Assembly (NCBI GenBank): GCA_965242795.1
Contig: OZ251505.1
Span: 243,737 to 307,736, forward strand
Source: an uncultured Candidatus Binatia bacterium
GTDB taxonomy: Bacteria; Desulfobacterota; Binatia; Bin18
Length of the DNA: 64,000 bases
Direction: 5' to 3'
Below are positions 10,200 to 22,770 of the stretch, piece after piece. Position 1 is the first letter of the stretch. The number at the start of each line of letters is the position of its first letter. A program made the position numbers and the translations under genes. The notes beneath the pieces were generated by a model. That model saw only the letters and a program-made list of their open reading frames with translations, made no database searches and was not told the origin of the DNA.

Positions 10200-12299
10200 C
10201 TATGGCTGCGGTTCTGCGGCCTGCGACTTCTCGATGTACTCTTTGTGCAGTTCGAGCTCTTCCTTGACCCGTTTCGTCAATTCCCAACCCTCGGCATGAT
10301 CGGCGATGACGTACGGAATGACCAGGATAATCAGCTCCGTGCGATCCACCTGAAAGGTATCCGAGCGGAACAAACGGCCGAACAGGGGCACCTTGGCGAG
10401 GCCGGGAACGCCGGTTTCTCCCCCACTCTGACTTTCGGCTATCAAGCCACCCATCAACAGCGAGCCACCGTCACGGAGCGTCAAACTGGTGCTGATCTCC
10501 CGGTTCAGAATGGTCGGCGACCCATCCTGACTCGTCGCCGCAGTGGGCCGGGCCTCGCTGAGTTGCTGGGAAATTTTCAAATCCACGAGCCCGTTCGCTT
10601 GGACGATCGGCTCGATTTCGAGCGTGATACCGGTCTTGCGGTAGGAGATCTGTTGCAGGACGTTGTTCGTGCCGCCGGTCTGTACCCCTTCTTCGACCGA
10701 GTTCTGCGTGATGACCGGAATTTCGTTCCCGACCTGAATGTTGGCCGTCTCACCGCTCTTGACTACCAATTTGGGGCTCGACCGGATCATGACGCGGCTG
10801 TCCTCGTAGAAAAAGTTCAGCGCGGCCCGCGTGTTCCCGGCGCTATTGAGCACCAGAGACGCGCCTTGCCCAATGCCGGCCAAGCCCAGTCTCCCGGTCG
10901 TTCGGCCCACGATGTTGAAATCGTCGCCCAGGAAATCGAGATCGCCCAGGCCGCGGCGCAGCAGGAACTCGAAGCCCGACCGTTCCTCGTCGTCGAGCGT
11001 AATCTCCGCGATCAGTGCCTCGATGAGGACGGATGGTGCAGGCTTGTCCAGGATAGCGACGACGTCGAGAATTTCGGCCCACTCCTTCCCCGACCCCCGG
11101 AACAGCAACAGGTTCCGGCGTTCGTCCACGACGATACTGCCGGTGCCCCCTCCGACAGGAGGAGGCTGCCCTTCCGCGGAAGCCGACTGCCCGGCCGGTC
11201 TGCCCGACGCCGACCCGGAACCGAGCATCCGGTTGAGCGTTTCGGTGATGTGCTCGGCCTGGGTATTGCGGACCTCGTAGGTGAACACCCCGTCCTCGAT
11301 CTCGTCTTGCCGCTGGGTATCCAGGATGCGCGCCCACTCCTGGACGTGTTCAAGCGTGGCTTGGTCCGCGGCAAATGCCACCAATTTATTGGCGTTCTCC
11401 AACGGGACGAGGATGGCGGCACCCCCGCGGGTGTGGAGAGAAATGCTGTAGCCTTCGGATTGGAGCACCTGAGACAGGGACTGCGCCATTGTGCCCACTT
11501 CCAGAAAGCGCGGTTCGATGATGAGTCCGTGCTGCCCTTGCATCAGGGGTTGGTCGAGCACCTCGATCATCTCCAGCGCCAGCGCGATCAGGTCCAGACT
11601 CCCCCGCAACAACAACGTATTGCGGTCCCGGTCGGATTCGATTTTCAGATCCTGCCCGGTGAAAACGTCCAGCAGCGTCCCCGCCACGGCTCCGGCGTCG
11701 ACGACTCGAAGGGGCACGAGCTGAAAAATCGTCCGGTGGGTGGCCGGCACTTCCGGCAAGGTTCTGCCGCTGATGAGCAAAGGAATATCCCGGGCCGATA
11801 TTTCCGGCGTCTCGACGAAGCTGAGTACGCCGTCCTCGTCTCGCACGTCGATGCCGTAATTCTCCAGGACCAGCCGCGCGGTCGCAAAGAGCTGGCTGGG
11901 CGAGACCGGTTCACTGAGTCGTAACGTCACCAGATCCTCTTTCTTGTCCAACCCGGGAGACACCGCATAGGACAGGCCCAAGACCTCGCCGAACACCTCG
12001 TTGATGAAGGCGATCAACGGCACGTCGCGGAAATTCACCTGAATCGGGGCGCCCTGCAGGTCGGCGCCCAACGTATCCCGTACCCCTTCGACCTCGGTGC
12101 GTCCGCGGGCGACGTCGGGGGTGCGTGCGAAGCGCGGTTCGTCGCTCGACGTGTCCGCCCCGCTGACCCTGGAATCCGGTTTTTCGGCCAGTTCCTTCGG
12201 TGGCCGGAGCGCCGGCGGAAACGGCTTCACGTCGAGCGTCGTGCACGCGCCCATCGACCACCCGACCACCACCACCAAAGAGAGTTCGGCGATTTTCAC
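10200..12299 (-). CDS. gspD: Type II secretion secretin GspD, probable lipoprotein
   Basis: N0-N3 and secretin domains (VLIEALIAEI, SSPKLVVKSGETANIQVGNEIPV, LLMGGLI, VPGLAKVPLFGRLF, ELIILVIPYVI); N-terminal hydrophobic stretch ending GAC. Confidence 0.95.
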   Translation of the reverse strand: MKIAELSLVVVVGWSMGACTTLDVKPFPPALRPPKELAEKPDSRVSGADTSSDEPRFARTPDVARGRTEVEGVRDTLGADLQGAPIQVNFRDVPLIAFINEVFGEVLGLSYAVSPGLDKKEDLVTLRLSEPVSPSQLFATARLVLENYGIDVRDEDGVLSFVETPEISARDIPLLISGRTLPEVPATHRTIFQLVPLRVVDAGAVAGTLLDVFTGQDLKIESDRDRNTLLLRGSLDLIALALEMIEVLDQPLMQGQHGLIIEPRFLEVGTMAQSLSQVLQSEGYSISLHTRGGAAILVPLENANKLVAFAADQATLEHVQEWARILDTQRQDEIEDGVFTYEVRNTQAEHITETLNRMLGSGSASGRPAGQSASAEGQPPPVGGGTGSIVVDERRNLLLFRGSGKEWAEILDVVAILDKPAPSVLIEALIAEITLDDEERSGFEFLLRRGLGDLDFLGDDFNIVGRTTGRLGLAGIGQGASLVLNSAGNTRAALNFFYEDSRVMIRSSPKLVVKSGETANIQVGNEIPVITQNSVEEGVQTGGTNNVLQQISYRKTGITLEIEPIVQANGLVDLKISQQLSEARPTAATSQDGSPTILNREISTSLTLRDGGSLLMGGLIAESQSGGETGVPGLAKVPLFGRLFRSDTFQVDRTELIILVIPYVIADHAEGWELTKRVKEELELHKEYIEKSQAAEPQP

Positions 12300-12321
12300 A
12301 CTGGCTCCAAATCCGTTGCGC

Positions 12322-21062: not shown

Positions 21063-21084
21063 CCCGATCTCTCTGCGCCGCGGG

Positions 21085-22770
21085 TCAGGTGTCGGTCAGC
21101 GTCAGGCGCGTGACCTCTTCCAGCGTGGTCCGCCCGTGCGACGCCTTGATGAGGCCGTCCTGGAACAGCGTGCGGTGGCCCTGGCCGTGGGCGAAGCGTT
21201 TGAAGTCGTTGAGGTTGGCGCCGGCGACGATCATGTCCTGCAGCCCGTCGGACATCGGCACCAATTCGTAGATGCCGGTCCGGCCACGATAGCCCGTGTG
21301 CTGGCAGGTCGGGCAGCCTTCGGCCTTGACCCACCGGTCGCCCAGCATCGATGCCGGCAGGTTGTCGAGATGGTTGCCGATCGCAGAGGGCACCGCGGCG
21401 GGCGCGGCGCATTGTGTGCAGACTTTCCGCACCAGCCGTTGGGCTTGCACGCCCCGGATGGGCGCCGCGACTAGAAACGGCTCCACGCCCATATCGACCA
21501 GCCGTGTGAAGCTGGACGTGGCGTCGTTGGTGTGGACGGTGGACAGCACCAAGTGGCCGGTGAGCGCCGCCTGAATCGCGATCTCCGCGGTCTCCAGGTC
21601 GCGGATCTCGCCGACCATGATGACGTCCGGGTCCTGGCGCAGGATGGCCCGCAGCGCACGCGCAAAGGTATAGCCGATCTCGGTGTGGGTCTGAATCTGG
21701 GTGATGTTCGGCATCTGGAATTCGACCGGATCCTCGACCGTGATGATCTTCTTCACCCCGTCGTCGGCCTCTTGCAGCCCGGCGTACAGCGTCGTGGACT
21801 TGCCCGACCCGGTCGGCCCGGTGACGAGCATGATGCCGTTGCTGGCGTGCAGCCAGCCGCGGAACAACTCCAGATGGTCGGCCTCCATACCGAGATTCCG
21901 GAGCGCCAACTCGTCGCGCTCCTTGGGCAGCAGGCGCAGCACGATGGATTCGCCGAACGCGCAGGGAACGGTCGAAACCCGCACGTCCATTTCCCGCCCG
22001 GAGATACGGGCGGTGATGCGGCCGTCCTGGGGCAACCGGCGCTCGGCGATGTCCACGCCCGAGATGAGCTTGATGCGCGAGGCGACCGCGGGGAACCGTT
22101 CGATCGGCTGGGTCAGGCGGGTGTGCAACACGCCGTCCACGCGCAAACGCACCGCGAAGTTTTCTTCGCTGGGCTCGACATGGACGTCCGACGCGCCCAC
22201 ATCCACGGCCTGCGACAGCAGGTTGTTCACGAGTTCGATGACCGGCGCTTCTTCGGCCATTTCCCGCAGATGCTTGGCGTCGCCGCTGGCGAACAGGTTT
22301 TCGATGGCGCGTTCCTTTTGCACGAAGTCCAACAGGCGGTCGATCTGATGATTCGCGGCCAGACAGAACGTCACGTCGGCATCGGGGTAGAAATAACCGA
22401 GCGTTTCGCGCAGCGCGTGGTCGAGCACGTCGCGCGCCAGGCAGTGGAGCGTGCCGTCCCGCTCCCACATGAGCGCCGCGTTGTCGAGAAACCAGTCCAG
22501 CTTGATCGGCGACTCGGAGACGAACCGATACACTTCCAGACTGTCGGGCAGCGCCTCGCCGTCGTGCAGATACGTCAGCCCGGTCTGCTCGGCCAGCGTC
22601 CGCAACAACAGGTCTTCGGAGATGACGCCGGTCCTGACCAGGAGCGGGCCGAGCCGGCCGCCCACGGACTTCTGAATCTCCCGGGCACGGTCGACGTCGG
22701 CCTGCTGCGCGGCGTTTCGTTCGACGAGCAGTTGGCCCAGCCGGTCCTCGCGAAATGTCGGTGTCGGCAC
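21085..22770 (-). CDS. gspE: T2SS ATPase GspE with N-terminal MshEN domain
   Basis: Walker A GPTGSGKSTT, TVEDPVE, LRQDPDVIMVGEIRD, tetra-Cys motif; tandem RLG motifs at the N-terminus. Confidence 0.97.
   Translation of the reverse strand: MPTPTFREDRLGQLLVERNAAQQADVDRAREIQKSVGGRLGPLLVRTGVISEDLLLRTLAEQTGLTYLHDGEALPDSLEVYRFVSESPIKLDWFLDNAALMWERDGTLHCLARDVLDHALRETLGYFYPDADVTFCLAANHQIDRLLDFVQKERAIENLFASGDAKHLREMAEEAPVIELVNNLLSQAVDVGASDVHVEPSEENFAVRLRVDGVLHTRLTQPIERFPAVASRIKLISGVDIAERRLPQDGRITARISGREMDVRVSTVPCAFGESIVLRLLPKERDELALRNLGMEADHLELFRGWLHASNGIMLVTGPTGSGKSTTLYAGLQEADDGVKKIITVEDPVEFQMPNITQIQTHTEIGYTFARALRAILRQDPDVIMVGEIRDLETAEIAIQAALTGHLVLSTVHTNDATSSFTRLVDMGVEPFLVAAPIRGVQAQRLVRKVCTQCAAPAAVPSAIGNHLDNLPASMLGDRWVKAEGCPTCQHTGYRGRTGIYELVPMSDGLQDMIVAGANLNDFKRFAHGQGHRTLFQDGLIKASHGRTTLEEVTRLTLTDT

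Follow-up and report, generated by a model that had tools for sequence, protein, structure and literature searches.

A type II secretion system (T2SS) gene cluster at positions 10200-22770 of a 64-kb stretch of DNA (contig OZ251505.1; the whole stretch is hereafter called the window) is split between two minor pseudopilin genes by a gene for a 539-aa pre-protein with a Sec signal, which we call X (16390-18009). An earlier note on this DNA had described this arrangement and read it as a self-contained export locus for a surface layer (S-layer) protein; profile matches for GspE, F, G, K, M and D bear out the description of the cluster. Our analysis favours the view that X is a dedicated, surface-exposed coat cargo of this T2SS, to which we give a probability of about 0.55. 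That it forms an S-layer proper is a narrower claim, and we make it only tentatively. Two properties of X are additions to the earlier note: the gene is a hypervariable cassette inside a conserved cluster, and its C-terminal domain (CTD) is a module common to X and secreted proteases.

Gene X within its secretion cluster

All genes of the cluster lie on the minus strand in the order E-F-G-H-I-X-J-K-L-M-(C/N)-D, with the following features.

21085..22770, minus strand: gspE, T2SS ATPase (Pfam T2SSE, E 2.5e-132; TIGR02533, E 3e-164)
19866..21062, minus strand: gspF, inner-membrane platform protein (Pfam T2SSF, E 1.3e-43, in two stretches)
19350..19862, minus strand: gspG, major pseudopilin (Pfam T2SSG, 5.5e-36, and N_methyl)
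18860..19390, minus strand: H-like minor pseudopilin (position and N_methyl/TIGR02532 motif GFTLLELVVVL only)
18337..18867, minus strand: I-like minor pseudopilin (position and prepilin motif; N_methyl 1.1e-5, weak gspI match)
18010..18336, minus strand: 327-nt spacer from the I-like gene to X (conserved promoter-like and Shine-Dalgarno (SD) elements)
16390..18009, minus strand: X, 539-aa pre-protein, candidate cargo (open reading frame with a Sec signal for signal peptidase I (SPI), no family match)
16405..16776, minus strand: CTD of X, residues 412-535 (best-conserved part, four invariant Cys)
16299..16369, minus strand: two GC-rich hairpins directly 3' of the X stop (minimum free energy -49.5 kcal/mol, z = -7.6)
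15567..16274, minus strand: J-like minor pseudopilin (position and weak prepilin motif GLTLLELLVVL, N_methyl E 0.021)
14551..15570, minus strand: gspK, minor pseudopilin (Pfam T2SSK_1st, 9e-8; NCBIfam GspK NF037980, 4.4e-13)
13533..14462, minus strand: L-like gene (position only)
12955..13536, minus strand: gspM (NF040576 T2SS_GspM_XpsM, E 1.8e-9, 37.5 bits, below the cutoff of 60)
12322..12921, minus strand: C/N-like gene (position only)
10200..12299, minus strand: gspD, secretin with N-terminal lipobox (Secretin 2.1e-41, Secretin_N, weak N0; TIGR02517, 1.1e-84)

A survey of gene neighbourhoods revealed that the linkage to T2SS genes is conserved among homologues of X: wherever a locus was informative they stand beside such genes, either nested or next to the secretin gene, and this holds for X identities of 96% as well as for those as low as 25%. 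In the first arrangement (type A), the order E-F-G-H-I-X-J-K-L-M-C-D is found in the window and in four other locus groups. In the second (type B), distant relatives of 25-30% identity follow directly after the orthologous secretin gene and occur as tandem copies.

Type A, P0021 (L001/L002/L007): X 51% identical to that of the window
Type A, P0015 (L003/L004): X 53% identical
Type A, P0026 (L008/L009): X 34% identical
Type A, P0030 (L014): X 32% identical
Type B, P0025 (L005/L006): X 30% identical; three copies, 100% identical to each other
Type B, P0177 (L013, 10001-13747): X 25% identical; two copies, 95% identical to each other
Type B, L012 (2-3710): two tandem paralogues, then glycosyl- and sulfotransferase genes

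Since the same order recurs in L001/L002/L007, L003/L004, L008/L009 and L014, the placement of X between the I- and J-like genes is not a product of chance, and the occurrence of two layouts over the whole divergence range of X implies that the family has been linked to this T2SS lineage throughout. In those type A loci that include the downstream flank, the same acyl-CoA dehydrogenase gene comes after the cluster (window, L001, L003 and probably L004). In type B, the secretins have 52-54% identity with the GspD of the window, and a transposase gene separates the first from the second X copy in L005/L006 (L005, 4126-11719).

Comparison of closely related loci showed that X is a hypervariable cassette inside a conserved cluster. 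Between L001 and L003, the products of the I, J, K, L, M and D genes are 95.5%, 96%, 98%, 99%, 100% and 98% identical, respectively, as compared to 59% for X. At the DNA level, the divergent block comprises the end of the I-like gene, the spacer and X up to its end, and the flanks are 94-100% identical. Similarly, GspE and GspD of the window and L008 are 97% and 80% identical, and X is 38% identical. Local allelic replacement of this kind is the hallmark of a surface-exposed antigen or of a receptor for phages. The H-like pseudopilin represents a second variable spot, with 74% identity between L001 (8583-9098) and L003 (8574-9092).

X carries a Sec/SPI-type signal in residues 1-24 (MGTKILSTVTAAALTAMLVAPVWA|QTEH; cleavage at ..APVWA|QTEH) and no prepilin motif. 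The mature protein has 515 aa, a mass of 53.1 kDa and a pI of 4.59. Its composition (G 13.4, T 9.9, A 9.7, S 9.7, V 7.8 and D 7.2%) agrees with the richness in T, S, G, A and D that had been noticed before, and so do its codons with the remark that more of them end in T or A than in neighbouring genes: GC content at third codon positions (GC3) is 0.72 for X and 0.79-0.92 for its neighbours in the window. Over the window, L001, L003, L008 and L014, whose alleles are 34-57% identical, the GC3 of X amounts to 0.68-0.72 and that of the neighbours to 0.76-0.88; in the secretin-adjacent loci L005 and L013 it is 0.88-0.89 and thus not lowered.

Judged by database searches, X belongs to a new, undescribed protein family, as had been thought probable. 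No Pfam or NCBIfam match and no enzyme domain or catalytic motif was found for X, searches of Pfam with three segments of X being negative at E <= 10, and a sequence search of the PDB with the X-family profile returned a chance-level match only (E 0.45). HMMER searches of 1.84 billion cluster representatives assigned 375 members to the family at E <= 1e-3 and 125 at <= 1e-30, and most of the 375 are 500-600 aa long and matched over their full length. The close relatives comprise 25 cluster representatives, with identities of 49-96% plus one of 30%, and all are unnamed and without Pfam domains. An A-x-E-x-F-G motif close to the start of the mature protein hardly varies within the family. When a diverse X profile was used in a second, word-indexed protein search, one new protein only was added. 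Scans of genome contigs were negative with X as single-protein query and returned only the Binatia genome OZ241332.1 with an alignment as query, and the JGI metagenome collection had no match to a degenerate DNA pattern that fits every known X locus.

Two S-layer proteins were considered as relatives and rejected. For NpdA (WP_011797163 and orthologues; sequence taken from the supplement of PMC10765051), the sequence-profile comparison gave a probability of 1.6%, and the profile-profile comparison with nine orthologues gave 0.45% with full-length X and 0.22% with the CTD alone. Alignment of the X-family profile to Slr4 (EAR28894) by hhalign yielded a probability of 0.2%, with sensitivity limited by the use of a single sequence obtained by optical character recognition from the supplement of PMC7821379. 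An AlphaFold2 model of X, built from a 26-sequence alignment, is all-beta with about four domains (pLDDT 75, pTM 0.64), preceded by a disordered N-terminal tail and containing a variable, low-confidence linker at residues 202-216. Foldseek comparison of the whole model with the PDB retrieved tandem immunoglobulin (Ig)-like surface proteins only (PrgB, antigen I/II, pilins, RbmA).

Several signals support the proposal that X is its own transcription unit with its own terminator. A promoter-like element, TTGCAC-N17-TATTGA/TATCAA, is conserved at 18139-18111 of the window, ~100-130 nt upstream of the X ATG, and a second conserved element, TTGNAA, is present further upstream in the spacer. A strong, purine-rich SD precedes the ATG at 18009. 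In addition, a conserved AGGAGG with an in-frame ATG at 18087-18085 is located 26 codons upstream of the annotated start. Alignment of the spacers of five loci (window, L001, L003, L004 and L008, one of them with an X only 34% identical) revealed TTGCA, GTA..A and AGGAG.ACG..ATG as invariant columns. Rfam had no match in 9000-24000, and the spacer therefore contains no known riboswitch or leader. The earlier note had assigned X a leader of ~330 nt. The length fits the spacer of 327 nt, most of which is promoter region, however, leaving ~95 nt or less for a leader if the conserved promoter-like element is used. Several database homologues were called from the upstream ATG, and the exact 539-aa product has no database record, which may reflect calling of the X gene from that start. 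The start at 18009 is preferred to that at 18087 by the majority of gene calls and by the second strong SD, and either start yields the same mature protein.

At the other end of the gene, CUUUCUUCAUU follows the second of the two hairpins. An equivalent double hairpin is found after the X homologues in L001, L003, L008, L014, L005 and L013; the sequence of its second stem is conserved among the Binatia-type loci, and U-runs come after the hairpins of the secretin-adjacent loci, which is the classical form of an intrinsic terminator. The structure may serve as terminator or attenuator, or it may stabilise the 3' end of the mRNA. Operons over-produce a major structural subunit relative to the machinery that assembles it by means of such a nested gene, which has a promoter to itself and an attenuating or stabilising 3' hairpin. 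The putative promoter, the strong SD, the 3' hairpins and the tandem copies in relatives are indirect hints at abundance of X.

The surrounding cluster makes the impression of a complete T2SS. It is divergent, because all NCBIfam equivalog matches fall below their cutoffs: TIGR02533 is the best-scoring model for GspE with 547 bits (equivalog cutoff 630), and TIGR02517 is the best model for GspD with a score under its cutoff as well. The L-like and C/N-like genes have no family match in Pfam or NCBIfam. The former has a conserved 309-aa counterpart at the equivalent position in L001 and L003, and the position of the latter is kept in related loci. No prepilin peptidase (GspO) gene is present in the cluster, nor did a crude motif search in six frames of the window find one; the genome may encode it at another site. 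A pilotin gene was likewise not seen in the cluster. The idea of a self-contained export locus therefore stands as far as the cargo gene is nested in the cluster, and does not extend to these two components.

In place of a pilotin, the system may use a lipobox of GspD. The motif ..GWSMGAC|TTLDVKPFP (12240-12299) is conserved in L001, L008 and L005 (SMSAC; LSGC), and a lipidated, self-piloting 'liposecretin' is therefore predicted. The N-terminus of GspE (22560-22770) contains a motif of the MshEN type, which binds cyclic di-GMP (c-di-GMP), with RLGQLLVER... and RLGPLLVRTGVISEDLLLRTLAEQ (NF053729, 46.7 bits, above the cutoff of 38), so that secretion may be gated by c-di-GMP. The Hxc T2SS of Pseudomonas aeruginosa has a liposecretin, HxcQ, and a neighbouring cargo, the alkaline phosphatase LapA. 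The system of the window resembles Hxc as a second-type T2SS whose secretin is predicted to be lipidated and self-piloting, with one cargo gene alongside and an ATPase of the MshEN class. The Hxc cargo is an alkaline phosphatase, however, and its gene is not known to be nested among pseudopilin genes. The gene order xpsE-F-G-H-I-J-K-L-M-N-D of the Xanthomonas Xps cluster is the same as in the window, with the secretin last, and the GspM of the window is best matched by GspM_XpsM. Xps is not known to have an internal cargo gene, and the window cluster, with its matches below equivalog cutoffs, is divergent.

Upstream of gspE, a block of lower GC content extends from 22700 to 33000 (GC 0.50-0.58 as compared to ~0.65). 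It includes open reading frames that have no family match, and a Caps_synth/glycosyltransferase-sulfotransferase fusion at 31448-33007. Glycosyl- and sulfotransferase genes also flank the X loci L008 and L012 and, weakly, L001. These genes are hints at a sulfated surface glycan linked to this T2SS.

A C-terminal domain common to X and secreted proteases

The CTD is the best-conserved part of X, with a mean pairwise identity of 0.71 versus 0.50-0.64 for the other domains. It comprises ~115 aa with invariant cysteines at positions 442, 448, 454 and 506 and the motifs NLRIRCEG and VQLLVRSGG.LTNN. Among 178 proteins of the family, 139 have it no more than 15 aa away from the C-terminus, and 15 have it as two tandem copies. 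The same domain terminates proteins with Peptidase_S8 and P-domain (two copies), trypsin/lysyl-endopeptidase proteins (two copies), and Peptidase_M10 and fn3_6 proteins, and it is thus a module that X and secreted proteases have in common. Examples are an S8 subtilase with P-domain (L010, 10001-13750) and a lysyl-endopeptidase-like protein (L015, 10001-12622), each of which ends in two CTDs; the genomes encoding the S8 and lysyl-endopeptidase-like proteases have sizes of 4.55 Mb and 2.97 Mb. One CTD-bearing protease occurs in a genome that is related to the secretin-adjacent X loci, as judged by a neighbouring protein that is 64% identical.

Comparison of the CTD with Pfam or NCBIfam models of known C-terminal secretion or pre-peptidase domains, such as PPC and the C-terminal domain of the type IX secretion system (T9SS), gave no match at E <= 10; one CTD-bearing protease has a separate weak PPC match besides its CTD. 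The AlphaFold2 model of the CTD alone reached a pLDDT of 73. The conservation of the CTD, its occurrence at the end of proteases and its frequent duplication fit a sorting or anchoring module. S-layer homology (SLH) domains and the T9SS C-terminal domain are sorting or anchor modules common to coat proteins and exoenzymes. Like these, the CTD is a terminal, beta-rich module of ~100 aa found on a putative major surface protein and on secreted proteases, often in tandem. In contrast to them it has no Pfam match, the machine associated with it is a T2SS, and its function is a predicted one. A more far-reaching proposal is that the CTD acts as modular address tag of this liposecretin-type T2SS, for sorting and/or surface fixing of folded periplasmic proteins such as X and several proteases, which would put it on a par with the T9SS C-terminal domain or SLH domains, and that X constitutes a hypervariable, cassette-exchanged S-layer in Binatota and other bacteria of metagenomes that, by sample name, seem to come from sponges. 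This extension is speculative, and we consider it unlikely.

Coat protein or other cargo

The elements described above could operate together as follows. X would be transcribed from its own promoter, and the 3' double hairpin would limit read-through into gspJ-D, so that far more X than machinery is made. The pre-protein would be exported by Sec with removal of the 24-residue signal, upon which the four beta-sandwich-type domains would fold in the periplasm, where the four CTD cysteines can form disulfides. The piston formed by GspC-M and the pseudopilus would then push folded X through the lipidated GspD, a step that the c-di-GMP-sensing GspE may gate. The CTD would keep X on the cell surface, or would have served as sorting handle, and the fast-evolving N-terminal domains would face the environment, under diversifying selection, as a coat, most probably as an S-layer-like array. 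Of the forms that this coat could take, an S-layer is the most economical one, because X with ~53 kDa is acidic and combines a conserved anchor with a variable exposed part, because relatives carry tandem X copies, and because there are three gsp-linked precedents, VapA, Slr4 and NpdA. The traits found in X, namely a secreted signal, a pI of 4.59, a conserved CTD and a variable rest, are typical of S-layer proteins but not specific to them.

Among the precedents, the S-layer proteins VapA/AhsA of Aeromonas have S-layer-specific T2SS-type export genes (PMC7821379, PMC10765051). According to these sources, they are like X in being surface proteins of ~50 kDa with a Sec signal and in their linkage to a T2SS-type apparatus regarded as dedicated. 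They differ in that their gene lies next to the secretion genes instead of within a pair of pseudopilin genes, that the host is gammaproteobacterial, and that the lattice is proven, whereas that of X is hypothetical. In Pseudoalteromonas tunicata, the gene of the S-layer protein Slr4 directly flanks a conserved gsp cluster (PMC7821379). Slr4 and X have in common a Sec/SPI signal, an uncharacterised family and gsp linkage, but Slr4 is modelled on RsaA and encoded outside the cluster, whereas X is nested and predicted to consist of Ig-like beta-sandwiches. NpdA of Delftia/Paracidovorax is encoded downstream of 12 gsp genes in Beta- and Gammaproteobacteria (PMC10765051). It matches X in its mature size (~52 kDa), in having no conserved domains and in its four cysteines; it differs in the location of its gene outside the gsp cluster and in a profile-profile probability of <1%.

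Several points weigh against a coat function of X. Its dependence on the T2SS, its retention at the surface, its abundance and its assembly into a lattice are inferred. The genes of CTD-bearing proteases do not adjoin T2SS genes, and the link between CTD and T2SS is therefore indirect. The resemblance of the whole X model to Ig-like surface proteins is generic, since TM-scores are ~0.2, and the CTD model retrieves TM1070, the Anabaena sensory-rhodopsin transducer (ASRT) and CBM6-type beta-sandwiches weakly (E ~1e-3, TM ~0.5). In a GC-rich genome, a lowered GC3 such as that of X in the Binatia loci, which is absent in the secretin-adjacent loci, does not usually go with high expression. With a strong pair of hairpins ahead of gspJ-D, the coat model does not account for how the machinery genes further downstream would be expressed. 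Finally, classical S-layer proteins are usually without cysteine, and X has four. The fold matches of the CTD are too weak to place it in the TM1070, ASRT or CBM6 families.

A serious competitor, even if rather improbable in our estimate, is that the T2SS secretes X as an adhesin, a lectin or a protein of the biofilm matrix, which would be released or loosely cell-associated and non-crystalline, with a CTD that binds glycans. The fold matches of X with Ig-like adhesins and with the T2SS-secreted matrix protein RbmA are in line with this idea. The weak likeness of the CTD to TM1070/ASRT and CBM6 beta-sandwiches makes a glycan-binding role possible, the MshEN motif of GspE would fit a control of biofilm formation, glycosyl- and sulfotransferase genes are nearby, and the CTD occurs on secreted proteases, too. 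On the other hand, a nested, separately promoted and attenuated gene, together with the tandem copies, suggests a very high dosage as expected for a structural coat, and the hypervariability of X is like that of major surface antigens, although a matrix protein would be compatible with both of these counterpoints.

The location of X between minor pseudopilin genes also brings to mind PilY1, whose gene lies in minor-pilin operons of type IV pili. That is, X could be a PilY1/PilC-like non-pilin whose CTD docks on the H-I-J-K tip, being displayed on the pseudopilus or priming it. The conserved C-terminus and variable N-terminus of X and the variability of the adjacent H-like pseudopilin would agree with such a role. 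However, X has its own putative promoter and 3' hairpins, its distant relatives follow the secretin gene in 2-3 tandem copies away from the pseudopilin genes, and the CTD is also present on proteases encoded elsewhere. Moreover, no PilY1/PilC or vWA domain was detected in three X segments with Pfam at E <= 10, and the model consists of beta-sandwich domains. Together, this makes a pseudopilus-bound X very unlikely.

Many dedicated T2SSs export one hydrolase encoded nearby, and the CTD occurs on proteases. X might accordingly be an enzyme or nutrient-binding protein, and thereby an ordinary T2SS cargo for substrate acquisition comparable to PulA or LapA, but we give this explanation hardly more than marginal weight: X has no catalytic domain or motif, its whole model is made up of beta-sandwich domains, and extreme allelic divergence within a conserved cluster would be unusual for an enzyme. 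Least probable is a purely positional linkage, in which Sec would export X and X would remain in the periplasm or outer membrane without involvement of the T2SS: although the connection between X and the T2SS is a genomic one, the gsp/secretin linkage persists from 96% to 25% X identity and in two gene arrangements.

Host and biological meaning

A syntenic locus belongs to OZ241332.1, described as 'uncultured Candidatus Binatia bacterium'. The proteins of its cluster have 70-95% identity with their counterparts in the window, with 94% for GspE, 89% for GspD and 95% for the flanking acyl-CoA dehydrogenase, and the window therefore originates from a member of the Binatia or a very close relative. 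Identities of 89-95% extending to the flanks confirm the earlier impression of a host outside the Gammaproteobacteria. A search of the window for tRNA genes was negative. To judge by sample names such as PANK22 and NGUY21, the related loci probably derive from sponge metagenomes. The literature was searched for reports on an S-layer or a T2SS in Binatota, without result.

T2SS-linked S-layer or coat genes are already known as a kind. The novelty lies in the X family, in the phylum, in a conserved position amid minor pseudopilin genes, in variability of the cassette type and in the C-terminal module that is also found on proteases. If X were an ordinary secreted adhesin, the finding would shrink to a new T2SS-linked family with an unusual gene position. 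Substrate recognition by T2SSs is a long-standing question, and to our knowledge no transferable secretion signal has been described. The locus offers a compact test system for this recognition, as it comprises one machine, one nested and evidently major cargo and a C-terminal module in common with proteases. Should the CTD turn out to be a transferable T2SS sorting or anchoring tag, this would bear on that question directly. As a coat protein, X would be the first candidate for such a cell-envelope component in the uncultured phylum Binatota, and, being hypervariable in the manner of a cassette, it is likely to be recognised by phages, predators or a host.

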